A DNA stretch of 63,516 nucleotides, the filler included, from Reclinomonas americana ATCC 50394 (taxonomy: Eukaryota): NCBI GenBank assembly GCA_048213135.1. It is 6 parts of 4 records of this genome, joined end to end, with 100 filler letters (N's around TTAATTAATTAA, not from the genome) between each part and the next. Parts side by side here need not be neighbours in the genome. Positions count along the whole stretch, not along the records: positions 26,330 to 29,681 come from PS015527.1; 5 more parts are not named here. The stretch is one strand, 5' to 3'. The notes under the pieces are model-generated. The model was given only the letters and a program-made list of their open reading frames with translations, did no database searches and was not told the DNA's origin. Position 1 is the stretch's first letter. Each line of letters begins with the position of its first letter. This document shows, in pieces, positions 23,386 to 62,653 of this stretch. The translations under genes and the position numbers were made by a program.

Positions 23386-23955
23386 CCCCCGACCTCCACG
23401 AAACAACCAAAAACAATTTTATGATTTTATTATATTACGAAGTTTTTTATAGTGGCAAAGTTTTTAAATTTTCGTCTTACGAAAATTAAAAACTATAACC
23501 TAGCCATAAAATTAAATCATTGTTTCGGGAGAAAACGCTTCGCGACTTTTTCTCTCAAATTAAGAAATTTATACTAATACAATATTATTAGTGAAATTTA
23601 AAAATTACCATTAAACACAAAACAAATTAAAAAATCTATATACAGAAAATTAAAATATTTTTATTTATATATTTATTTATTTTTTTAATTAATATATTAT
23701 TTATATGGTATTATATATATTGGAATTTTGGAATTGGAAAATATATAAAGTATAAGAAAATAGTAAAATATATATAAAATAGAGCAAGAGTGAAAAAAGC
23801 AAGATTTCCATTTCCAAATTCCAAAGTTGTGGAAAGATGATTTTAAGGGCTAAAAAAATGAGATAGTAGAATGGCGAGGAAAAAGAATGATTGCGACGGC
23901 GAGAAAATAGAGCCACAAAAATGCAATCCTAAAATGAGATCACCTGACAATCTTT
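23386..23955. repeat. Non-coding AT-rich region with several inverted repeats (candidate terminus/origin/terminator)
   Basis: Hairpin agtttttaaattttcgt-ctt-acgaaaattaaaaact at 23459-23494; imperfect IR 23720-23740 versus 23805-23824; cgaaacaa (23399) versus ttgtttcg (23520). Confidence 0.6.
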
Positions 23956-23956
23956 T

Positions 23957-24577
23957 TTATGGTGCATCGCTATTAGTGTCAGTATTATAAAATGAACTTC
24001 TTGGAGTTTTATTAACATCATACTCTGTTGTAAAGAATATGATAATATGTTGTGTCATACCGCAAACATGTTGTAGTATCTTGTCAACAATTTCTATGTC
24101 ATTAATAGTTTTCAATTTAGCTTTAACTACTACTTTATCTTTGTTAAGTTCAAGATCAAAGTATTTCTTAAACTTCCCCAACTTTTTATTTAGTTCTTTT
24201 TCTGTATATTCACGTTCAAGAATCTCATGTATTAATTCTTCAATAGTATATTTAGTATGTGATATGATAGAGTCTTTTGCCTCTTGTTTAGTTGTATAAA
24301 TGCCTTGTATTTTCATCTCAGTGTATCCATCATCAGAATCACGACAAATATATTCTGTTTTTCTTTCAACTATAAAAACTGTTTGTTGAGTATCACTATC
24401 AGAGTCACATCTATCACAATCATTATCGTTCAAAAGACATTCATCTTCTTCATCATACAATACATTATTTGCATCAAGACATTCAACGCAATATGTTGCA
24501 TCACATCTTTTACATCTTATAAATGTACCACACCCAACATGATCACAATTGAAACACTTATTAAAATCTGGACTCAT
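23957..24577 (-). CDS. Viral protein with N-terminal Cys-rich zinc finger (206 aa)
   Basis: CFNC...C....CKRC....CVEC followed by acidic linker. Confidence 0.7.
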   Translation of the reverse strand: MSPDFNKCFNCDHVGCGTFIRCKRCDATYCVECLDANNVLYDEEDECLLNDNDCDRCDSDSDTQQTVFIVERKTEYICRDSDDGYTEMKIQGIYTTKQEAKDSIISHTKYTIEELIHEILEREYTEKELNKKLGKFKKYFDLELNKDKVVVKAKLKTINDIEIVDKILQHVCGMTQHIIIFFTTEYDVNKTPRSSFYNTDTNSDAP

Positions 24578-24625
24578 TATTATACAATGGAGCTATATAA
24601 TAATGTCAATTTACAAACTCATTCA

Positions 24626-25623
24626 TTAATATGGTGTTGTAAACCAATGAACAAGATTATGTGATAAATTGTCTTTTAACCTATCGGATATTAAATCAAA
24701 TTTACNNNNNNNNNNNNNNNNNNNNNNNNNNNNNNNNNNNNNNNNNNNNNNNNNNNNNNNNNNNNNNNNNNNNNNNNNNNNNNNNNNNNNNNNNNNNNNN
24801 NNNNNNNNNNNNNNNNNNNNNNNNNNNNNNNNNNNNNNNNNNNNNNNNNNNNNNNNNNNNNNNNNNNNNNNNNNNNNNNNNNNNNNNNNNNNNNNNNNNN
24901 NNNNNNNNNNNNNNNNNNNNNNNNNNNNNNNNNNNNNNNNNNNNNNNNNNNNNNNNNNNNNNNNNNNNNNNNNNNNNNNNNNNNNNNNNNNNNNNNNNNN
25001 NNNNNNNNNNNNNNNNNNNNNNNNNNNNNNNNNNNNNNNNNNNNNNNNNNNNNNNNNNNNNNNNNNNNNNNNNNNNNNNNNNNNNNNNNNNNNNNNNNNN
25101 NNNNNNNNNNNNNNNNNNNNNNNNNNNNNNNNNNNNNNNNNNNNNNNNNNNNNNNNNNNNNNNNNNNNNNNNNNNNNNNNNNNNNNNNNNNNNNNNNNNN
25201 NNNNNNNNNNNNNNNNNNNNNNNNNNNNNNNNNNNNNNNNNNNNNNNNNNNNNNNNNNNNNNNNNNNNNNNNNNNNNNNNNNNNNNNNNNNNNNNNNNNN
25301 NNNNNNNNNNNNNNNNNNNNNNNNNNNNNNNNNNAATTAGATAAGAAAATTTGTTTTTCGTGGTTCTCATCTAATAGTTTAGGATCCAAACAGCTCACAG
25401 GATACTGGTATAGTATCGGTAGAACACTATCAAAGTTAATACTATATCTTATAGCTGGATCTAACAATTTAGGATAACTTGCCACCATTTCATCACTAAA
25501 TGCATAGGTTTTGTCTCCTATTTTAACTTCATGTACATTTGATGATTTAGTTTCTACATGTGCGATAACATCTTCTTTTTGTAGTACATTTAATCGTACT
25601 CCTCCTATGGTCGTAACACTCAT
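24626..25623 (-). CDS. Viral hypothetical protein spanning a gap
   Basis: MSVTTIGGVRLNV...IFLSN before the gap; KFDLISDRLKDNLSHNLVHWFTTPY* after it (joining is assumed). Confidence 0.5.
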
Positions 25624-25658
25624 TGTATATACAATTATACAATAAATTAAATTTTAAC

Positions 25659-25913
25659 TCACCATAAATAATGATATGCGAAATAGCCTGCCGGTGTATC
25701 ATCTAAGTTTTTATTTTTCGCATGTCTCAATCTATATAATCTTCTTCTTTCTTCATCATTGTGATCTTTATGTTTCCATAAACCGATGCGATCTTTATAA
25801 TGTTCGTAAATAGACGATCCAAATGATGTTATGAATTTATCATTTTTATAAACATCATATTTCTTCTTTTTGTTTTTGCTTTTCTCAAATCTATATCCAT
25901 CTAATAGCACCAT
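25659..25913 (-). CDS. Tlr6F-like conserved small protein of PLVs, virophages and NCLDVs
   Basis: KKKYDV....SFG...YEHYKD....HKDHNDEERRRLYRLRH.....AGYFAYHYLW. Confidence 0.8.
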   Translation of the reverse strand: MVLLDGYRFEKSKNKKKKYDVYKNDKFITSFGSSIYEHYKDRIGLWKHKDHNDEERRRLYRLRHAKNKNLDDTPAGYFAYHYLW

Positions 25914-25933
25914 TTATATATTATCATTATAAA

Positions 25934-26229
25934 TTAAATCACATTATTCCAAATGTAAAACGTGGCTCCAAAATATGGAAAATCTGTGAGTGTTCCGTTG
26001 CTATTACTATATAAATCAATCCTGTAATCTACACCTGTATATACCATATTGAATGTTACATTGCTAAAACTTGATCCATTTGTGAAATCACATGTTACTT
26101 TACCGTACATATTTGATGCTGTGGGTAACAAAGAACCGGAACCATCAACGCAAATATGAAAACCCGTAGCATATCTATAACAACCTATTTGTGTGCTTGA
26201 AGGTGTTGATGTGTTAGCAAATGTTAAAG
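25934..26229 (-). CDS. C-terminal beta-rich fragment of a viral gene (5' truncated at contig end)
   Basis: Frame is open to the contig end: LTFANTSTPSSTQIGCYRYATGFHICVDGSGSLLPTASN...GATFYIWNNVI*. Confidence 0.6.
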
Positions 26230-26329
26230 NNNNNNNNNNNNNNNNNNNNNNNNNNNNNNNNNNNNNNNNNNNNTTAATTAATTAANNNNNNNNNNNNNNN
26301 NNNNNNNNNNNNNNNNNNNNNNNNNNNNN

Positions 26330-26459
26330 CTAATGTTTTAATACTTTGCATTGCATATACGCGGTGAACTATTCTCATTGTACATTTATCATGTAAGCAA
26401 CAGATATATTGATCAAGAGGATATTTAATCTTTTCTTTACAAAATTTACAAAACAACAT
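26330..26459 (-). CDS. Small Cys/His-rich viral ORF, 3' truncated
   Basis: MLFCKFC...CCLHDKC. Confidence 0.45.
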
Positions 26460-26503
26460 TATTATTATATCCTAAACCGACATAATAATATGATAAATTA
26501 AAC

Positions 26504-26992
26504 TTAATCTAAGAAGGTAAACTTAGCTTTAATCATCTTTTCCATGGCATTATTAATCTTTGGGAATGCTATAATACCGTCTTTATCTTTGTATTGTAAT
26601 TTGCATCTATCTAAAAGACTAGCAATTATAATACCAAATGCATTGTCATATATATGCGTATACATTCTATGCGGTGCATGCCAAAAGTCAAATGATGCTT
26701 GCGTGAACTGGTCATACATGTCTACATCGTCTTTGAGTATTATGTTATATACTTCCTGCTCACGATGTATTAGAATCATATATAATGCTTCCATTTCGCT
26801 AAGATCCCAATTCTTCACATATTTTCTAACTTTCTTTTTGAGCTTCTTCTTCAGTTGCTCATAAGTCTTCATCATGGGGTTGAGGAGAATATCGGTATCA
26901 TTAATTATACCATCAGTTAAAATGAAGTCATCTAAAAATAAACCACCTGAAATATTAACATACTCAATCGCTTTAAAAAATTTAGTCAGCAT
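26504..26992 (-). CDS. Viral hypothetical protein (162 aa)
   Basis: Clean ORF preceded by the TTAAAGAA motif. Confidence 0.7.
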   Translation of the reverse strand: MLTKFFKAIEYVNISGGLFLDDFILTDGIINDTDILLNPMMKTYEQLKKKLKKKVRKYVKNWDLSEMEALYMILIHREQEVYNIILKDDVDMYDQFTQASFDFWHAPHRMYTHIYDNAFGIIIASLLDRCKLQYKDKDGIIAFPKINNAMEKMIKAKFTFLD

Positions 26993-27041
26993 TTTTATTT
27001 ATAATATTATATATCATTATTTCTTTAAGCCCTTTTTATAG

Positions 27042-27137
27042 AAATCTATATATAGAGAAAAATAAAATCTATATATTTAAAAAATAAAATCTATATATAA
27101 AAAATAAATTCTATATATATTTAGAAAATCTATATAT
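27042..27137. repeat. Five spaced copies of AA(A/T)TCTATATAT
   Basis: gaaatctatatat..aaaatctatatat..aaaatctatatat..aaattctatatat..aaaatctatatat at roughly 20-24 nt spacing. Confidence 0.85.
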
Positions 27138-27145
27138 TCAAAAAA

Positions 27146-28423
27146 TTATTTATATAGTTTCTTGGCTAATCTTTTTTGTTCTTTGATATCCTTAAACAAA
27201 TCTACTTCTTGATCATCCGCAAACTTGAAATTAATGACATTCTTAATATCGCATTCACAACCTCCCTCATATTGTAAGTCGCCTAATTCACATCCTGTTT
27301 TGGTGTTTGCCGAAATTGGAGCACTTAAAATAATACCATCAGTATGAGCCCATAAAACATTATTTATGTTCTTTTCAATGATTTTAGATAACATATATCT
27401 AGACTTGGCCATAATAAACGGTTTAATACGTGCAAAGTTTGTTTCATATGGTTTATTGATATCAACTACTTCTACTTTGCAATTTCCATTTTTACATGGC
27501 GTCATATGTTTTATAAACCATCGATCTTTATTTACTCGTGAATCATCTGGAGTTAATGTAAATTTTGTCGAGTTCGCCTGACATAATCCGCCCCATAGAC
27601 AATTAATATATTTCTTTATGCATTTAAATCCTAGTTGTTTAAGTTTGAATAGATTACTTATTGTCGGTCCGAATAATTTTGAACCATTAATGAACTTGTC
27701 ATATAATAATGCATTTGGTTCATCTTCGTGACTTATTAATGTTAATACATAACCTAATTCTAATGCCCTGTTTAAATCTGTGTGTGTATACCAATTGTCT
27801 TGATTTTGTATCAGTAATTTGGGGTTTGATTTGTCTATATGAACATGATATATTCCAAACTTGAAAAACTTCATCTTCTTAAATTCTTCATCCGTTATAT
27901 GTGTTAGTTTGCCTTTTGTTAGTGGAATTTGAAATTGTTGACTTTGTAAAATATATGGAAACTGTGAAATAATATCATATCTATGTCCAATGCCTTTGTA
28001 TGGTTTATCACAAAATATTAATGCACTATTTGAACACATTTCTAAAATATCATATTCATATAATTCTATTTGCTCGGGCTCTGGTGGTTTGAATCTGTTA
28101 AAATATTCTAATATTGTTACTGTTGGTCTGCCTGTTTTTAGTGTGTTGATTTCGCCTTTTGTTATCTTTTTTATTAATTTTGACTCTTTCATAAATAATT
28201 TGTATTGTTGTTTTAATGATAAACATTTCATTCTTTTTGAAACCTCATTTTTTTGAATTAATATATATGGCGATGTTTTAGGGTTGCTTCTTATATCTTT
28301 GAATTCCTCGTTTGTGAGTGAATCTTTTTTTATAGCTTTAGAGTATATGACAATCTTTTTATCATCTGTTTTTTGAAATACTATTACTTTTCTCTCATTA
28401 GGACTTATTCCGTGAACTTTCAT
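27146..28423 (-). CDS. Short, divergent family B DNA polymerase-like protein (425 aa, no recognisable exonuclease domain)
   Basis: Motif A RYDIISQFPYIL, motif B KKYINCLWGGL, motif C WAHTDGIIL, followed by ELGDLQYE. Confidence 0.78.
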   Translation of the reverse strand: MKVHGISPNERKVIVFQKTDDKKIVIYSKAIKKDSLTNEEFKDIRSNPKTSPYILIQKNEVSKRMKCLSLKQQYKLFMKESKLIKKITKGEINTLKTGRPTVTILEYFNRFKPPEPEQIELYEYDILEMCSNSALIFCDKPYKGIGHRYDIISQFPYILQSQQFQIPLTKGKLTHITDEEFKKMKFFKFGIYHVHIDKSNPKLLIQNQDNWYTHTDLNRALELGYVLTLISHEDEPNALLYDKFINGSKLFGPTISNLFKLKQLGFKCIKKYINCLWGGLCQANSTKFTLTPDDSRVNKDRWFIKHMTPCKNGNCKVEVVDINKPYETNFARIKPFIMAKSRYMLSKIIEKNINNVLWAHTDGIILSAPISANTKTGCELGDLQYEGGCECDIKNVINFKFADDQEVDLFKDIKEQKRLAKKLYK

Positions 28424-28489
28424 TTTTATATAATCTATATACTTAATATTTCTTTAAACCATTTTTAAAAAAATATTTAATTAAAAAAT

Positions 28490-28846
28490 CTATACTTTCT
28501 TTTTTTGTTTGATAAGTGAAATGTCTGCTTTCTTTGGCTTGTAATATTTCTTTTCTTGATCGTGAATAAATATTTGGAATGAATCGGGTTTATCATCTGC
28601 ATATAATTCGGGTCCATCTTTATAATCTTGTGCAAAAATATGGACTTTATCGCCAAATTTTGTGCTTACTGACGGCGTCCATATATCTTGATCTTGGAAG
28701 TGAATTGCAACACCAATGAAACCGTCTTCATCTTTCATACTATTTGATATACCTTGCACAAGTTCTCTTATCTTTTCTAAACTCATTTTTTTATTAACAA
28801 CTGCTCTTATTGTATCTGCATAATAATTCTCCCAATTTAATTTCAT
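28490..28846 (-). CDS. Viral hypothetical protein (118 aa)
   Basis: Clean ORF preceded by the TTAAAGAA motif. Confidence 0.65.
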   Translation of the reverse strand: MKLNWENYYADTIRAVVNKKMSLEKIRELVQGISNSMKDEDGFIGVAIHFQDQDIWTPSVSTKFGDKVHIFAQDYKDGPELYADDKPDSFQIFIHDQEKKYYKPKKADISLIKQKKKV

Positions 28847-28928
28847 TTATATATAATATCTATATATAAATATTTCTTTAAGACATTTTTGAAATTCTAT
28901 ATAATTAAAATATTTGTATATTTTATAG

Positions 28929-29681
28929 ATGGCATATAATCAGATTTTTAATGACATTGTCAAATTACAGAATAAGAAAAGTACAAAATCTGTAGAGAGC
29001 AGTTTATTAGATAAGTTGTATGAGAAACCCAAAAAAGATAAAGGATTAGAGGCAACGACATTTAGTCATCCAACAGCGGGATACTATCAACAGGCTGATT
29101 TATTATTTTTGCCAAATGATCAAGGTTATCAGTATTGTTTAGTTGTTGTTGATCAGGGTAATAGACATGTTGACGCGGAACCATTAAAAACAAAAAATAG
29201 CAGTGATATATTAAATGCATTCAAAGCAATCTATAAAAGAAAAATATTGACTGTTCCAAGAAGTTTAAGAACAGATTCAGGAAATGAATTTAAAAATGAC
29301 ATTGTTAAAAAAGGATTGGAGGAAATGGGAATCATATTAACATTCGCAAAAACTGGCAGACATAGACAAGTCGCACTAGCAGAAAGAAAAAATCAAACTA
29401 TTGGGACAGTCATTCATAAAATCATTGTTAATGATACTTTGGCGACTGGTCATGCATCATCGGCGTGGGTTAGTACATTGCCGTCTATTATTACAGTTAT
29501 AAATAAACATGTTGATGAAAAAGGAGAAAATAAAAAGCCAAAGAAAAAGAGTTATGCCAATCCAAAATTAAAATTATTAGAAATGGGGCAAAAAGTGAGG
29601 GTAATGTTAGATAATCCGAAAGATGTGACAGGAAATAAATTAAGTGGAAAGTTTAGATCATCCGACATACGATTTGATCCT
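28929..29681 (+). CDS. rve integrase 2, 3' truncated at contig end
   Basis: QQADLLFLP...LVVVD...DAEPLK...LRTDSGNEF...ALAERKNQTIG (D-D-E intact); GQKVRV...GKFRSSDIRF. Confidence 0.9.
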
Positions 29682-29781
29682 NNNNNNNNNNNNNNNNNNN
29701 NNNNNNNNNNNNNNNNNNNNNNNNNTTAATTAATTAANNNNNNNNNNNNNNNNNNNNNNNNNNNNNNNNNNNNNNNNNNNN

Positions 29782-32700
29782 GAATGCACTCGTTGCATGC
29801 CATGGCTGCACAACAATGTGAGCGGCGAGAGGGAGCATGGTGTGACGAGATGACAACAAACCCTTCTTGCCCTCGAATGGCGGATTGTTGAAGCACGCCG
29901 GGCAAAACGGAAACGACTTGCTTTGAGGGCCGCCACTGACCATCAGCAGCTGGAAACCGTCCAGCGGGCAAGTGTTGTCCTCAAACAGCTGTGCACGCGC
30001 TACCAGTTAGTTCATGCCTGCGCTCTGTGAGAACAGCGTATGCGAGACGAAACCTTGATGACACCCATGATGGGCAGCGCGTACAGATCGTCGCACTCGG
30101 GGCAATGCAGTCGTGGAGGCTTGCTGGCAATGTACTTCATGTACCGACGGCACTTGCCGCAACGCGAGAACGGTCGGCCAGACTCGGCAATGGTGGAGAA
30201 TACGCTCTCGAACAGCTCGTCCATGCGCGAAATGTTGGCCACAAAGTAGGCGAACTTGCCGGCAAAGGTCTGCAACGCGACACAATACGCGCTGAGTGAA
30301 GGGGAAGTGCCAGTGGAGGCAGTGGCAGGGGTGCGCAACCTCCAGTGCATGCTCCACCACCACCTCAAACGACGCCTCTCCCGAGGCGATGAGATCGATG
30401 GTCTGCTCAATGTGCGTGCGAACCTGTGGAAGTGATGAGCATGTACTGACAGACAATCGTGAAACGCGCACGGCCAGTTGACCGACCTTGGGAAGCACGA
30501 GATCCGGATCAATCTGCGTGTGCAAAGACGTCAAAGGTGAACAGAGATGTCAGGGGCACGGACACATGGAGGGGAGATATGCGAAACTCGATAGTAGCCG
30601 TGCGAGAGCAGAATGCCCAACTTGGTCGGCATCAGCATGCGGGTGCTCTCGTCCACCGTCACGTAATTGCGCTTGCAAATCTACTCCCACGCGGCAATGA
30701 GAAAAGCACAAAGCACACAGAGCATGCGACGACAACGCAACATTCTCAATGTGGGTCGGAATCGAGGCATCGGTCTAGTCATCGTGGTCGCGCCATCAGA
30801 AACGATACTTATCGAATGCACGAACACGCAGACTGCGCGCACGCAACTCCAATGCCGTGCTTCTCCATCAGGCTGATAAGCTCGGACTCGGTAAGGTTCT
30901 CCGGCGGTCCAGTCTGCCACAACAGCACCGAATGAGCACTCGCACAGTGCAGCTCCGCGTGCACGCGTCCATACCTCGCCCTCGCGCAGCAGGACCTCAT
31001 GGCACGGCACCATCTCGTTCACCTCAAACGCCGGCACCGTCTGCTCCTCCACATTGGTCCACGGCAGCACGGCCACGAAACCCGGATCGTGCACGATCTT
31101 GCCGCTGCAATAATCTTTTCAGAGTGGTACCGTGAAGGAAGCAGAGGAGACGACGTCCGCACCTGAGAAGAAATGTCTCATCACCGAGCTCAAAGTTGAC
31201 CTTGGTCTTGGTGTATCGGCCTGCATGCGACTCTGGCCTCAGCCTTTATCCACGCACATATGCACGAAGAGACGGATGAAGCAATGCGCACGCAACAGTC
31301 GCCGGAGAAGGAGGCGATAAAGTGCCTCGTGATGCAATCGTACAGGCGGGCGGAATCGCCCTGTGCGCATGAGTGAGAAGCATGCCAGAGAAACATTCTG
31401 CGAGAGCACCCCTCACCTGCACAGAGTCATCGATTGGTCTCATGGGCGTGATTGGCGGGTGGTCGCCCTTGTCCTCGCCGGAGCGCGGTCGTTCAATGCC
31501 CCCCTGCATCACACCACGCTGTCAGTGCCTGCCAACCACACAGACCTCCGTGGAAAGACGCACCCGCAACAGTGACGCCACAAAGTCGCCCCAGATTGGA
31601 TGATCGCGCTGCAGACGCAGCGTGCCAGCCACATCGAAATGGTCCGGATAGTGTGTGCTCTCCGTGCGCGGATACGAGATGTAGCCCGAAATATACAGAC
31701 GCTCGGCCAACTGCCATCAAAAAGAGCACGTCATGAGTCCCTCAGACATCGAGAGAGTAGCATGCACAGGGAGGGAGCTCACTTGCATCGCGTGATGTGG
31801 ACCCATGCGCAAAAACGACGACGCCATGCGCAGCATTTCGACCGTGTTCAGCCCGGCGGGGCGCGGTCGCTTGCCATCCTTTTTCGTCACCGTCAGCACC
31901 TGCATCACGACAAAATAATCAGCATGCACTGGCGCGACACGGGAGCGCCACGTAGAAATGGGGAAAGACCTTGGCAGCGCGCGCCTCCGACACAATGTGC
32001 TGGAAGGTGGCACCGATCTTGCGATCAAACACGCGACCGCGGCTCCACTCCGGCAACACCTCCTGTCCATTCTTCTTCAGCACGGGAACCACCGTCCAGT
32101 GACTCTCTGTGTGCACCAGCATTGCATGAGCGTCGTCGAGACGGGATGAGATGGAAGATGGCACGCAACCTGGAGTGAACTGCTGAATCTGGTCGTGCCG
32201 CTCGACGCAAAAGCCGAGTGTCGGCGTCTGGCACGGCCCGTACGACAGGACCAGCGAATTCAAGTTGGCGTACTTGCCTGCCAGCAGGAATGAGTTGGAG
32301 ACACGTCGTCGCACGGCTGCACTCGCGCGCACGCACAGCTCACCGTGGAAGAAGCGCGTCTGGAAGCGAGAAAACGCAACGCCGACCTTCAGATCGATCT
32401 CCTGTCGTGCATCCACCGCCAGCGCCTCATTGTGATTCGGCTGCACGAGGTTCGCCATGGCACGGCGGATATCAGGCGCAGAGATGGCCGAGAAGCGCGC
32501 ACGAAACACGCGCTGTTTGGAGCCTCCCGCGTTCATCTTGCGCAACGCGTTCTCCATGACCTCGAAGCAAATATTCTCGCCTTCGCGATCGCAGTCGAGC
32601 CACAGAACAAGGTAATCGCAGCCCTTGGCCTCCTTGCTGAGATGCTTTGGCATGTGCAGCGACGGCGTCGACTCCTCCTTTTGCACGGGTGCCGAGAACA

Positions 32701-49807: not shown

Positions 49808-52800
49808 CTTGCTTGCTGGGCAGAGTCGGGCATGTATCTGGTGACGATGAATCGTGCAATATCGTCCAAACCGACCCCGATCATCGAGCTGCCGGAATCC
49901 AAGGAGCCCAAGGGCAGGTCCACGTGGAAGCAGCTGCGGCGAGCCGACGACTGCCCTCCAAACGCCTTTATTCGCTTGTTCTTGCACCGAGGTGAGGGAG
50001 GGGGGTCATTGGAGCGAATTGTTCGTTTTTTCCCTTCTCGGATGGATGTTCACCGTCTCCCTCGCCAGCTCGTGTCGACAGCGACCGCACGGCGGGTCTG
50101 CGTCGTGAGTTTTACTTTCGTCGCGAGATGACACACATGGTGTGCATCGTGTATCCCATGAATCCCGAACGGCGAAAGAAGACGTCCGACTCGGCAGGTG
50201 AGTTTTTGATTCTCCGTCGTGTTGCACACACGTTCTGACTGGCTTATCGCAGGTGCCTCCGCCGCCCCTGTGACACCGCGCGTTGCGCGCGGCGGTGGAC
50301 GGGCGGGATCCAGAGGCGGCCGGCGGAAGCGGCATGGTGAGTGAGCCGAGGATGGCGGCGTCCCAGCAACTGTGGCCTCACTCACCGGTGCGTCACAGCG
50401 GACAGCGACGACGACGATGGCGAGGAGGACATTGACGACGACATTGATGATGATGAGTACGCGGTGGACGACGGTGGCGGTGACAGCACTGACCACACAC
50501 CAGAGACACTAGCTCGCACGTGGTCCACGTCATCGTCCGTCGGCTCCACTCCCAAAGCAACCCTGCTGCCGGTCGCCTCCTCCTCCTCCTCTAGTACCTC
50601 GTTGTTGACACGGCGCCGTTCTGGTGGCAGCGGCAGTGGTAGCGGTGATGCAGGTGGTGCGTTCAGTGGACTGCGGCAGCTGCATTCGCGCAGCAACGAG
50701 GATCTGGCGGCGCTTGCCGCGTCCATGCGCGACGGGGAAGACGAAGACGACGAGGACGACGATGGTGGTACTGGTGGTGTTGGTTCTGGTGGCGACGGCA
50801 GGGGCGATCACGAGATGCGACAACAGCCAATGGCGGCGACGAATCGTGTGTCGATGCAAACGCTGCAGGAGTTGGCGTCGCTGGCGACCCAGGGGCACGT
50901 TCCAAAGCCGCTGCAGTCGATTTCCACGCCCGGTCTGTGGATGGCAGTGGATGCTGGCGCTGTTGCCGGCACAGGTGTTGGCAGTATGGCAGCGCCTGCG
51001 GCGGTCCCCATGGGCGTGCCCATGGCCATTGTCAGTGGCGGCAATCCACCAGTGGGAGCAACGTGGACTCGGCGAGCGCCTCCGCCACCACAAGCTGCCG
51101 TCAGCGTGTCTGTGGTGCAACAGCAACAGCAACAACAGCAGCAGCAGCAGCCAATCGTGTTGCCAGCAGGGCGCAAGCGTCAGCTTTCTGGCGCGCGGTC
51201 CTCACAAGCGCCCGTCTCCACCGTGGTCGTCAGTGCAGCTGGCCTGTCGCGGGTGAAGGAGGAGCCCATGTCACTGGCGCCCGCCGTTGTAGGTGCCCTG
51301 CGACCTGTACACGTCCGCGGCACGAGCGGTGGCGGTACACAAGACGCAAAGATGATCGTGACTGACGAACAAGGAGGAGAGGGGGAGGATGAGGAAATGG
51401 AGGCGCCTGCCGGCGGCGCGTTCGAGGAAGAGGCGGACGAGGACGAAGATGAGGTGGAGGAGGAAGAGGAGGAGGCCGACGAAGAGGATGTGAGCGAACG
51501 AGGAGGCGACACGGAACGGGAGGATGATGCCGGCGCGCCACCGCGCAAGCGGCAAAGGGGAGAGCAGCAGCAGCAGCAGCAGCGGCAGCGGTTGAAACTA
51601 CAGCAGCAGCAGCAACACGAGGTGTTGCGACGACGTGCTGCGCGCCACTCTTCGACGGTGAGCTCTGTCGACGGTGACGCAGCGAGTAGCACGGCATCGA
51701 GTGCGCCAGCCACGGAGGCGTCATCGCACGCGCACGGCGCTCACGATCTGTCGAGTTCGTTTGCCTATGAACCGATTCCCATGGTGGGCCGCGAGCAACA
51801 GCTCGAGTCTGCACTGCAGTTCTTGGAGGGCACACAGAAACGTTGCGTCGTTCACTCGCTTGTCAACACGGCAGTAACTCATTGTGTGGCTCGCAGTCGA
51901 TCGTACTCGCATGTGCGTCATCTACATCACTGGCGAACCGGGCATGGGTCGCACCTCGGTGGCGCGTCACTTGGTGCCGCGAATCGCCGAGCGTCTCAAG
52001 TTGGATGTGTCGCCCGTGTTTGTGGATCTGCGTGGCAATCAGGACTCGCGAAGAGGGCTTGCGGTTGCGTCGCGTTTGTGTGTGCTTGTCGATCTCCACG
52101 CATTCACTAAATCGGTGTCTTGCAACTCGCAGAATGCGCACGCTCTGCACCAGATTCTGCAGCAAATAGACCACGAAACAGCCTGTCGGTTTGGCGGCAT
52201 GGCCGACGAGGTGTTGGTGCGACGCGAGTGCCATCGCTTGCTGCGAGTAAGCGTGCCGGAGAAGCAAGTCATTCTCGTACTAGACAATGCGCCGTCATCG
52301 CAGAGCATCGAGCAGCTGTTGCCGCTGGAGGGTCCTGGTGAGAGTGCGCGAGGGAGAGAGATGCGTGACTCGAAATCGGGGTGCTGATCTGTTGTGCATC
52401 AGTTGCGGACATGTACCCACCGATTGTGCTGGTCATTGCATCGCCGTCGTTTGGCGATGATGGCATGCTGCCGGAGAGCAAGGCCGCCACGTATCGAATC
52501 CACTTGAAACCGCTCTCCACTCAACAGGTGTGATGCTTTTGTCACTTTTCCATCCCATGTCTGTTGTGTTATTTACCGTCTTGCAGTCTGCCGAATTCCT
52601 CACGGTGGCCATGGTCAAGGCCTGTGGTCCACACTTCAATCCATCAGATGCAGCCATTCAACAGGTCATCAACGAAATGGTGGTGGCCAGCAACGGACAC
52701 CCACTATTCATGCAGACGCTTGTCGGGTGCGTTCGCTTTTCTCTCTCTCTCTTTCTCTCGCTCATTCGTCTTTTGACACTGTACCCGGCCACATTTCAGC

Positions 52801-57500: not shown

Positions 57501-58123
57501 AGAGAGAGAGCCTGAAATTGAAAAAAGATTGTTTGTTTTGAGTTGTCTCGCGATAGACATGCGACGTGGTTCTGGTTCGGGCGCGACCGGCAGCTCCTCC
57601 TCCTCCTCTTCCTCATCCAGCAACAGGGCAACAGCGCCTCGTCGCTATTCATCGACGCAGTCGTCTGCACCCGCACCAGCAGCGGCTGCACCCTCGTCCT
57701 CGTCGTCACTGGCCAGCAAGCTACGCAACGCACAACCACTGGCCAATGTTGCGTGCGTGAGAGAGAGAGAGAGTGATCCCGCCAACTGCCTCAAGCTCTC
57801 ACATGTGACGCGCTCGCACACATTAGCCCTCGTTCCAACGCGATCCAGCCCTTTGGGCAGCCGTAGCTCTACAGCAGCAGGCGGCTCTCTCACTGCGCAT
57901 GCCGAATTCGCGCGCGGTGGCGCCAAAACGGCGGCGACAAGATCGCGTGTTGCGCGCGGGTGAGACCAATGCCGAGAACGACACAGCCACCACGCAGACA
58001 CTGGCCGAACGGATGCGCCTGGTNNNNNNNNNNNNNNNNNNNNNNNNNNNNNNNNNNNNNNNNNNNNTTAATTAATTAANNNNNNNNNNNNNNNNNNNNN
58101 NNNNNNNNNNNNNNNNNNNNNNN

Positions 58124-60423: not shown

Positions 60424-61471
60424 CTGGTGACCGACTTTTACCTGTACGGTACGCCGTTTTTTTGGTCTTCCATCTGATCGCATCTTCGTTGTCCAGCTCA
60501 TTTGCCTTGTTTTTTCCGCAGGCTGGGGCAAGTCGTTCCACTTTGCCGGCGCTCGCAAGGGCGAGTCGCTGGACTCCTCCATCTCCCGCTACCACCAGCG
60601 CCTGGTTGACGAGCTCGGCCTGAAGCCGGGCATGAAGGTGCTCGACTGCGGCTGCGGTGTCGGTGCGTTGTGCATGCACAGGGAGTCACACGAGCATTGA
60701 ATGCCGGCTGAATTATGCACTGCATAGGTGGTCCGCTGCGCGACATTCACCGCAAGTCCGGTGCCGATGTGACCGGCATCACCATTTGCCCGTACCAGGT
60801 GGAGAAGGGCAACGAGCTGTGCCGTGCGGAGGGTGTGGCCGATCACTGCCGCCTGGTCAAGGGCGACTTTTGCAAGCTCGACATGTTTGAGCCGAACTCC
60901 ATTGACGCTATTTACTGCATCGAGTCGACGTGCTACGCGCCCAAGCTGGAGATGCCGTACGGCGAGTTCATCCGCCTGCTGAAGCCCGGTGGCCGGTGCG
61001 TGCCCTCCTCTCTTTCTCTCTCTCTTTTGCAAGCAGTGTCTGTTTTGACGAAAGTGTGTGCTTGTGTGTGTCGTAGTCTGGCGGTGATGGAGTGGGTCAG
61101 CACGCCGGAGTACCGCCCCGACTTCCCGGAGCACAAGCGTGTGATTGACCTGATTGTGAAGGCCAACGCGCTGCCGCTGATGCGCAACTGCAGCGAGGTG
61201 GCGCCGGCTGGTCGCAACGTCGGCTTCAAGGTGCTGGAGGAGTACGACGAGATGGACAACCACGAGGTGCCGTGGTACCGCGAGCTGGAGAAGAAGTTTG
61301 GCTGGTCGATCCCATTGACCAAGTTCACCGTGCCGATTCTCGAGTTCCTGCGCCTCGCACCCAAGGGCACCACTGCCGTGCACGATGTTGCGTCTCATCG
61401 TCACGGAGAGAGAAAACAAAAGACTCACTATAATGTCTGTTGCAGTACCTGCTCAATGCTGGTCTGTCGTG
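60424..61471 (+). CDS. Sterol 24-C-methyltransferase (ERG6/SMT-like), partial
   Basis: LVTDFYLYGWGKSFHFA; LGLKPGMKVLDCGCGVGGPLRDI; VKGDF; IYCIESTCYAP; LLKPGG; RLAPKG. Confidence 0.9.
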
Positions 61472-62653
61472 NNNNNNNNNNNNNNNNNNNNNNNNNNNNN
61501 NNNNNNNNNNNNNNNTTAATTAATTAANNNNNNNNNNNNNNNNNNNNNNNNNNNNNNNNNNNNNNNNNNNNACAAAGAGGGAGAGGCAGGGAGGAGAGCA
61601 GGGAGGAGGGAGGAGAGAGAGAGAGGCAGAAGGATGCCTCATGACGAATAGGACGGTCTCGGCGCGAGTCATGACGAGGGTGCCCACAAAGAGAGAGGCA
61701 GGGAGGAGAGCAGCGAGGAGGGAGGAGAAAAGGGAGAATAAACAGCGGAAGAGTGACAATAGGAGCGTCCGCTGTCGTGGCACATGGATCAGCTGCTCCT
61801 CTGTTGACCACACAGACCCTGCACATTACAAGATCACACTCACACCTGTCCCTTCTCTCTCTCTCTCTCTCTCCCCTCTCACTCAACATCCACNNNNNNN
61901 NNNNNNNNNNNNNNNNNNNNNNNNNNNNNNNNNNNNNNNNNNNNNNNNNNNNNNNNNNNNNNNNNNNNNNNNNNNNNNNNNNNNNNNNNNNNNNNNNNNN
62001 NNNNNNNNNNNNNNNNNNNNNNNNNNNNNNNNNNNNNNNNNNNNNNNNNNNNNNNNNNNNNNNNNNNNNNNNNNNNNNNNNNNNNNNNNNNNNNNNNNNN
62101 NNNNNNNNNNNNNNNNNNNNNNNNNNNNNNNNNNNNNNNNNNNNNNNNNNNNNNNNNNNNNNNNNNNNNNNNNNNNNNNNNNNNNNNNNNNNNNNNNNNN
62201 NNNNNNNNNNNNNNNNNNNNNNNNNNNNNNNNNNNNNNNNNNNNNNNNNNNNNNNNNNNNNNNNNNNNNNNNNNNNNNNNNNNNNNNNNNNNNNNNNNNN
62301 NNNNNNNNNNNNNNNNNNNNNNNNNNNNNNNNNNNNNNNNNNNNNNNNNNNNNNNNNNNNNNNNNNNNNNNNNNNNNNNNNNNNNNNNNNNNNNNNNNNN
62401 NNNNNNNNNNNNNNNNNNNNNNNNNNNNNNNNNNNNNNNNNNNNNNNNNNNNNNNNNNNNNNNNNNNNNNNNNNNNNNNNNNNNNNNNNNNNNNNNNNNN
62501 NNNNNNNNNNNNNNNNNNNNNNNNNNNNNNNNNNNNNNNNNNNNNNNNNNNNNNNNNNNNNNNNNNNNNNNGGACACCCTCGTCATGACTCGCGCCGACA
62601 CCGTCCGCTTCTCCCAGCCTTTCTCTTACTCCCTCTGCCGACACCCTGCAGTG

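Follow-up and report, generated by a model that had tools for sequence, protein, structure and literature searches.

A proofreading-less, mavirus-type DNA polymerase probably paired with a detached terminal-protein-like gene in a Reclinomonas americana assembly

Introduction

How would a family B DNA polymerase (PolB) of 425 residues start DNA synthesis if neither an exonuclease nor a terminal protein (TP) is recognisable within it? The question is raised by an open reading frame (ORF) at 27146-28423 of a 63,516-nucleotide stretch of the Reclinomonas americana ATCC 50394 assembly (GCA_048213135.1), referred to below as the window. A sequence-only reading of the window had described this ORF as a minimal, exonuclease-less PolB-like protein with altered catalytic motifs and had proposed that it serves as an active stripped-down polymerase or primase together with a superfamily 1 (SF1) helicase. 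Sequence comparison and structure prediction lead us to a different answer: the 425-aa protein is probably a proofreading-less protein-primed PolB (pPolB) of the mavirus type that is paired with a separate TP-like gene and has no vOTU domain, the two genes together forming a protein-primed replication module.

Results

The polymerase ORF (P0001) is encoded on the minus strand and is complete from ATG to stop, with the stop codon at 27146-27148, while the plus-strand frame across 27146-28423 is full of stops. This agrees with the complete 425-aa ORF described before, to which the strand can now be added. Motif A (DIISQFP, residues 150-156, including the metal-binding D150), motif B (KKYINCLWG, residues 270-278, including K270) and motif C (HTDG, residues 360-363, that is H360-T361-D362-G363) were all present as previously read and aligned with the corresponding motifs of phi29 DNA polymerase. 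Searches of Pfam, PHROGs and PDB sequences with the single 425-aa protein returned nothing usable, and the polymerase identity was therefore drawn from the family profile and the fold search only.

Homologues were abundant. A word-indexed search recovered 46 of them, and an exhaustive phmmer search matched 1453 cluster representatives at E<=1e-3, 354 of which reached E<=1e-30, with the nearest relative being 66% identical over the full length. PF03175 (DNA_pol_B_2) was reached by seven of the 42 members that were aligned (best E 6.6e-14). When the profile of these 42 members was compared with phi29 DNA polymerase, three colinear segments covered motif A (FDVNSLYP), motif B (KLMLNSLYG) and motif C (CDTDS) at a whole-sequence E-value of only 0.069. 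The spacing of the motifs was phi29-like as well, profile positions 224-303 and 345-396 corresponding to phi29 residues 262-350 and 396-432. The lengths of the homologues were bimodal, at ~400-450 aa and ~600-650 aa, and the query aligned with the C-terminal ~400 residues of the long forms. Judged by these comparisons, the 425-aa protein is a full-length member of a large conserved family and not a decayed fragment, an alternative that had been raised for this copy.

Conservation was assessed over 166 near-complete homologues, comprising 78 short and 88 long forms. D150, K270, G278 and D362 were found in 166/166 and T361, R332, R342 and E123 in 165/166 sequences, while H360 was shared by 155/166 and the Trp of LWG by 154/166. 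HTDG and the other motifs that had been taken for peculiarities of this copy are the consensus across the 166 sequences; the "altered" motifs are therefore the family norm with the catalytic residues kept. Both essential Asp residues, the motif A Asp and the second Asp of motif C, are among the invariant positions, as the sequence-only reading had held. The one exception to the family norm is position 155, which we take to correspond to the steric-gate Tyr of phi29. It is Tyr in 159/166 sequences and Phe in the remaining 7/166, which are without exception short forms; this copy and its close relatives are among them, so that F155 represents a clade trait.

An AlphaFold2 model built on the 42-sequence alignment had a mean predicted local distance difference test score (pLDDT) of 94.4 and a predicted TM-score (pTM) of 0.90. 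In a Foldseek search of the PDB nine phi29 DNA polymerase chains ranked first (E 1.8e-10 to 7e-9), followed by archaeal and viral PolBs (E ~1e-4), whereas the best match among predicted viral structures was the 617-aa polymerase of Cafeteriavirus-dependent mavirus (E 1.4e-24, TMq 0.76, root-mean-square deviation 3.3, 401 columns, 24% identity). The second match among the viral structures was a 339-aa Harvfovirus entry (E 1.7e-24). The model combines a palm/fingers fold with motifs A, B and C and the metal-binding Asp, as is characteristic of the pPolB subgroup, and the suspicion that the fold might be something other than a PolB palm can be set aside. Its match to phi29 DNA polymerase spans the regions that hold TPR1 and TPR2.

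The N-terminal 3'-5' exonuclease domain with the acidic residues of Exo I-III, which is likewise characteristic of pPolBs, was not found. In the model, a portion of the phi29 exonuclease domain was matched by the ~120 residues ahead of the palm. Exo I-III would be expected within residues 1-118; the invariant and 90%-conserved columns of that stretch contain no acidic residue, and positions 12-16 were variable. The earlier failure to recognise Exo I-III was thereby substantiated. As modelled, the protein is a PolB palm/fingers fold without a working exonuclease, and a palm that is kept next to an exonuclease reduced to a remnant is what characterises the mavirus type.

No TP region was detected inside the 425-aa ORF either, consistent with the previous reading; the ORF begins at the exonuclease remnant, without the N-terminally fused TP (D1) domain of mavirus-type polymerases and without their vOTU domain between TP and palm. 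A TP-like gene was found nearby. The minus-strand ORF at 28490-28846 (118 aa, P0192), located 66 bp upstream of the polymerase gene, shows homology to the first half, TP/D1, of the extension found at the N-terminus of the fused ~600-aa polymerases. This homology emerged from a profile of the extensions of 75 long forms (221 positions), which was searched against 501 ORFs from the window and the first eight related loci. Profile positions ~15-121 are TP-like, and the second half is vOTU-like and begins at a nearly invariant GG followed by an NDCLY box. The 118-aa ORF matched at E 4.6e-11 and exclusively over positions 27-121, and no other ORF of at least 50 aa in the window matched the extension profile at E<=10. 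For the vOTU half (positions 122-221) no match at E<=10 was present among window ORFs of at least 50 aa, and unassembled parts of the element may hold one. In a BLASTP comparison with the long form P0053, residues 24-107 of the 118-aa ORF aligned with residues 30-107 (E 3e-6), while two further pairwise alignments gave weak results; only the profile search among neighbouring ORFs brought up relatives of the 118-aa ORF.

The TP/D1 alignment also pointed to residues that might carry the priming hydroxyl. A column directly following an Asp was Ser or Tyr in 58/75 fused and 11/15 stand-alone TPs. The window protein has D74-Y75 at this position, with Gly-Pro next, and its putative linking residue is Y75 or, as another candidate, Y82. 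The stand-alone TP ORFs end at the GG that precedes vOTU in the fused forms, where the two GG columns are occupied in 72/75 and 65/75 sequences.

With respect to a terminal protein that would supply the priming hydroxyl, the adjacent ORF thus offers homology to TP/D1 and the Ser/Tyr column together with fold matches that were weak. Its model is a small alpha/beta domain with a disordered basic tail (residues 103-118) and a pLDDT of 81.3, based on a 16-sequence alignment. A search of this model against BFVD gave no match at E<=1e-3, with the mavirus polymerase at rank 3 (E 0.047), and the PDB fold search yielded no clear match. Little-finger domains have been reported as the best matches of TP/D1 domains (PMC11161782); the fold matches obtained here agree in direction with that account but stay below the level of evidence. 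A predicted complex of the polymerase with the TP-like protein scored 0.31 against a mark of 0.34 in a run without alignments and without controls. At rank 1 of the BFVD search stood a 153-aa uncharacterised Harvfovirus protein, a weak match (E 4.5e-3). One giant-virus metagenomic bin (Harvfovirus sp., BFVD entries A0A3G5A8K3 and A0A3G5A1A6) holds both this protein and the 339-aa short polymerase mentioned above, and a split pair may occur in that bin too.

Recurrence of the split arrangement was examined in eight loci from viral contigs and 59 loci from metagenome contigs. Short PolB ORFs with complete 5' ends were present in 23 of these loci, 20 of which extended at least 400 bp upstream. 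A TP-like ORF adjoined the short polymerase in 18 of the 20, on the same strand in 14 and divergently oriented in four. The vOTU half of the profile was left uncovered by the TP-like ORFs of the short-form loci, and no separate vOTU was found there. All 16 loci with complete long forms, on the other hand, carried the fused extension.

A similar division was apparent in a set of 177 near-complete homologues, of which 78 have no N-terminal extension (383-481 aa) and 88 carry TP and vOTU (583-748 aa). The remaining 11 (432-567 aa) match only part of vOTU and no TP; these may be truncated gene calls or may constitute a third architecture, vOTU-PALM with a separate TP, as in the coral polinton and adenovirids. 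A FastTree phylogeny of the shared region placed the window protein among 43 rows that form a supported clade (98) made up entirely of short forms. A NUMOD4 motif was noted within one of the polymerase homologues, P0012 (469 aa).

The promoter-like motif noted earlier for the polymerase ORF proved to be a genuine repeat. An identical 11-mer, TTAAAGAAATA, precedes the ATG of three consecutive minus-strand genes by 23-25 nt. It is located at 28447-28457 (minus strand), 23 nt before the ATG of the polymerase gene and followed by TATATAGAT; at 28871-28881 (minus strand), 24 nt before the ATG of the TP-like gene starting at 28846 and again followed by TATATAGAT; and at 27018-27028 (minus strand), 25 nt before the ATG of the ORF at 26504-26992, which starts at 26992. 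Allowing for up to one mismatch, TTAAAGAAATA had 10 matches versus 0.42 expected, a value taken from shuffles of the whole window and too low for AT-rich DNA. Since the TP-like gene and the polymerase gene share the 11-mer, they look like separate units under the same control, and their location on opposite strands in some relatives points the same way. Five tandem copies of an AT-rich unit of ~20 bp (27042-27146; plus-strand consensus AAATCTATATATTAAAAAATA) separate the polymerase stop codon from the promoter-like motif of the next gene. Ahead of both the TP-like and the polymerase gene, the core TATATAGAT of this unit also lies between the 11-mer and the start codon.

The record that contains the polymerase gene (26330-29681) is 3352 bp long with a GC content of about 0.3 and comprises the end of one ORF, a 162-aa ORF, the polymerase, the 118-aa ORF and a divergent integrase. 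The 162-aa ORF (26504-26992, minus strand) had a weak, sub-threshold DUF5514 match (E 5.2e-4, 20.7 bits versus a cut-off of 27) and no helicase match. The rve-type integrase (28929-29681, plus strand; Pfam rve E 8.4e-9) is oriented away from the TP-polymerase pair and cut by the record end; it is 50.6% identical to the integrase in the same position of the related locus L001, according to tblastn and synteny. Artificial joiners consisting of 44 N, TTAATTAATTAA and another 44 N form the left (26230-26329) and right (29682-29781) boundaries of the record, and the GC-rich DNA beyond the latter belongs to a different record. An identical joiner, with stops in all six frames, occurs five times in the window (18555-18654, 26230-26329, 29682-29781, 58024-58123 and 61472-61571). 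The joiners connect concatenated separate records, and gene neighbourhoods across them are therefore artificial. A candidate 13.6-kb integrated element spanning 16116-29681 was rejected on this basis, the joiners revealing three records, and two other low-GC stretches were dismissed as artefacts of N runs. For the polymerase record, neither integration in a GC-rich genome nor membership of a 13.6-kb element can be claimed. Apart from the artificial joiners, a search for terminal inverted repeats brought up just short AT-rich pairs that were imperfect.

The SF1 helicase that had been proposed as a partner was not found in the assembled sequence: it was absent from Pfam scans of 15 AT-rich ORFs and of 54 ORFs of at least 130 aa outside 16-30 kb, as well as from the stop-to-stop ORFs of 23300-27200. 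The relatives carry a superfamily 3 (SF3; DUF5906) helicase instead, which was found in L001, L003, L004, L006 and L008; a helicase profile detected it in 10-11 of the 67 related loci. In the window, tblastn and profile searches found no SF3 helicase, the polymerase record being only 3352 bp long. The related viral contigs are mavirus-like and include GIY-YIG. An integrase divergent from the polymerase was of the rve type in L001 and L003, only a chromodomain being present in L004, and virophage-type capsid proteins were encoded in L005, L006 and L007. In L001 (12063-13191) the polymerase is followed by an HNH/NUMOD4 homing-endonuclease-like gene and a DnaJ-domain gene.

Two further AT-rich records are part of the window. 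The record at 16116-18554 shares a scaffold with GC-rich DNA, from which a 205-N gap separates it; this is the sole hint of integration in a cellular genome. The record encodes a second rve integrase (17072-17827, minus strand), ~24-34% identical to the integrases of related loci versus 31-51% for the one at 28929-29681, and a GIY-YIG nuclease (17843-18379, minus strand). The record at 18655-26229 holds a structural module. Pfam scans identified DUF5901 (18603-19193) and an A32-type packaging ATPase (19289-20302), and a major-capsid-like 492-aa ORF (21129-22607) had no Pfam or PDB sequence match, the protein atlas giving only leads to double-jelly-roll capsid clusters. A Ser/Thr/Gly/Asn-rich 283-aa ORF and a Cys-rich 206-aa ORF are encoded here as well. 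No match was seen between the ORFs of this module and the capsid genes of virophage type in the related loci. Cellular-type features in the GC-rich records include a type IA topoisomerase/Toprim piece (31922-32653, minus strand), a weak CDC45-like stretch (50725-52107, plus strand) and a methyltransferase piece (60715-61524, plus strand), and TG/CA-type microsatellites are present in GC-rich DNA around 14.2-15.9 kb.

Discussion

The predicted architecture and the gene pairing suggest the following mode of replication. The polymerase, with its exonuclease remnant, palm, fingers and putative TPR1 and TPR2, would work together with the 118-aa detached TP/D1 protein. At the ends of a linear element it would couple the first nucleotide to the TP through a Ser/Tyr hydroxyl, with Y75 or Y82 as candidates, and then elongate, while the TP would remain on the 5' end. 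The vOTU protease, situated between TP and polymerase in the fused relatives, would be unnecessary where the two are separate polypeptides and may have been lost for that reason. Unwinding would probably fall to an SF3 helicase as in the relatives, none being encoded on the 3352-bp contig.

Several observations weigh against a two-gene protein-primed module of this kind. A word-based protein search with the 118-aa ORF found no homologue. No phi29-like thumb was matched: the alignment of the polymerase model with phi29 stops at residue ~507 of 575, after which the model has only 19 residues left. F155 in place of the steric-gate Tyr is shared by this copy and only six other sequences of the 166. 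At least seven switches between architectures are required on supported branches of the tree, and parsimony puts the number at 17, so that either the split arose more than once or some of the short forms are truncated gene calls. Among the 23 short-form loci L012, L020 and L031 are otherwise incomplete, and the pairing was missed in L008, where an unscored 127-aa ORF occupies the place, and in L015. Since several loci are near-duplicates, the stand-alone TPs amount to 15 distinct sequences of at least 100 aa including that of the window. Finally, the polymerase record, with its 3352 bp, carries no terminal inverted repeats and no helicase, and this copy therefore need not belong to a complete or live element.

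One alternative is a dead endogenous relic without function in the present genome, in which the ORF has stayed intact by chance or inactivation is recent. The short contig, the truncated integrase and the missing helicase and terminal repeats would fit such a relic, as would F155 where 159/166 sequences have Tyr. We consider it unlikely, because the ORF is complete with all invariant residues and 66% identical over its full length to the nearest relative, F155 is common to the close relatives, and the neighbouring TP gene is intact as well, both genes keeping the same upstream 11-mer.

A primer-independent polymerase-primase (piPolB-like) might start chains de novo, the upstream ORF being an unrelated accessory protein. 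The sequence-only reading had already compared motif C with that of piPolBs. It was right that these polymerases dispense with the first Asp, as an enzyme with SxTTDG is an active polymerase in experiments and primes de novo (PMC5695915), but the motif it cited, KTDG, should read TTDG, and KTRG replaces the KxY motif and not motif C (PMC5695915). The window protein resembles piPolBs of pipolins in the replaced first Asp and the Gly after the catalytic Asp (HTDG versus TTDG, a partial likeness) and possibly in TPR1/TPR2-type insertions, which piPolBs have (PMC5695915), and no TP is fused to it. On the other hand, piPolBs possess an active exonuclease and the signature KH-X8-KTRG and need no TP (PMC5695915). 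None of this applies here: KTRG and the exonuclease residues are absent, the nearest structures are the mavirus pPolB and phi29 DNA polymerase, and the ORF upstream shares homology with the TP half of the fused forms, a pairing seen in 18/20 loci. De novo priming is accordingly quite improbable. A stripped-down polymerase, probably active to judge by its conserved residues, is what remains of the earlier proposal, and with the TP-like gene 66 bp upstream the primase role is not needed. The least probable alternative, a polymerase extending nucleic-acid primers from a host or helper-virus primase with the small ORF as a DNA-binding or processivity factor, is at odds with the structural match spanning the TPR1 and TPR2 regions of phi29 DNA polymerase, with the phi29-like motif spacing and with the Ser/Tyr-only column beside Asp that is expected of a linking residue (criterion in PMC11161782).

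We therefore prefer the proofreading-less pPolB with its separate TP-like gene. Beyond this locus, we tentatively suggest, at somewhat less than even confidence, that a mavirus-related lineage has cut protein-primed replication down to two small genes, a TP of ~110-130 aa and a polymerase of ~400-430 aa without exonuclease, vOTU or recognisable thumb. The split would lie at the GG preceding vOTU, with vOTU gone whenever TP is separate, and might serve as a natural experiment indicating that TP release at the GG is the only essential job of vOTU. If active, the pair would be about the smallest protein-primed replicase pair known. It has been proposed that vOTU cuts TP from the polymerase (PMC11161782), and the split form lends comparative support to this hypothesis, marks the GG as candidate cleavage site along with a candidate linking residue, and would allow protein priming in eukaryotic virus-like elements to be tested with a very small system of two proteins.

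The exonuclease-less pPolB at the core of the earlier reading belongs to a described class, the mavirus-type enzymes, and is not new as such: forms of this kind are already in print for virophages, mavirus among them, and for polinton-like viruses (PMC11161782, PMC13215967). Palm-retaining truncated pPolBs (PRT-pPolB) were named by Wei et al. 2026 and occur in 97/7041 eukaryotic genomes (PMC13215967). The combination of a separate TP gene, a palm-only polymerase and complete loss of vOTU was not found in the available text of PMC11161782, PMC13215967 and PMC12721341, the supplements of which may list such forms.

Among the known systems, phi29 DNA polymerase differs in having 575 aa, an active exonuclease and a thumb, and its identity to the window protein is 14-16%; phi29 also has a separate TP, but one with a helical fold unlike the TP/D1 type (PMC11161782). 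Polinton-like viruses and transpovirons encode Tlr1-like proteins (TP-vOTU-PALM-S1H; PMC11161782) that share an exonuclease-less palm derived from the polinton pPolB, but they carry TP-vOTU at the N-terminus and an SF1 helicase at the C-terminus. No such helicase is fused to the palm here, the window ORF ending 19 residues past the last phi29-matched palm element, and a word-limited search found no homologue of at least 745 aa, which is weak evidence against a helicase fusion. A TP split into its own gene, with TP-vOTU-pPolB ancestors, is known from the adenovirus pTP/Pol and the Stylophora polinton (PMC11161782). Both of these retain the exonuclease and keep vOTU on the polymerase, in an inactivated form in adenovirids and in an active form in the coral polinton (PMC11161782), whereas exonuclease and vOTU are both gone in the window protein. 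The mavirus pPolB (TP-vOTU-PALM; Krupovic et al. 2024, PMC11161782) differs in that its 617 aa include TP and vOTU fused N-terminally, in place of the separate 118-aa TP gene without vOTU seen here; it agrees with the system described here in being the best structural match, in the exonuclease remnant, in belonging to the same sequence family, in the adjoining rve integrase and in the SF3 helicase of the relatives.

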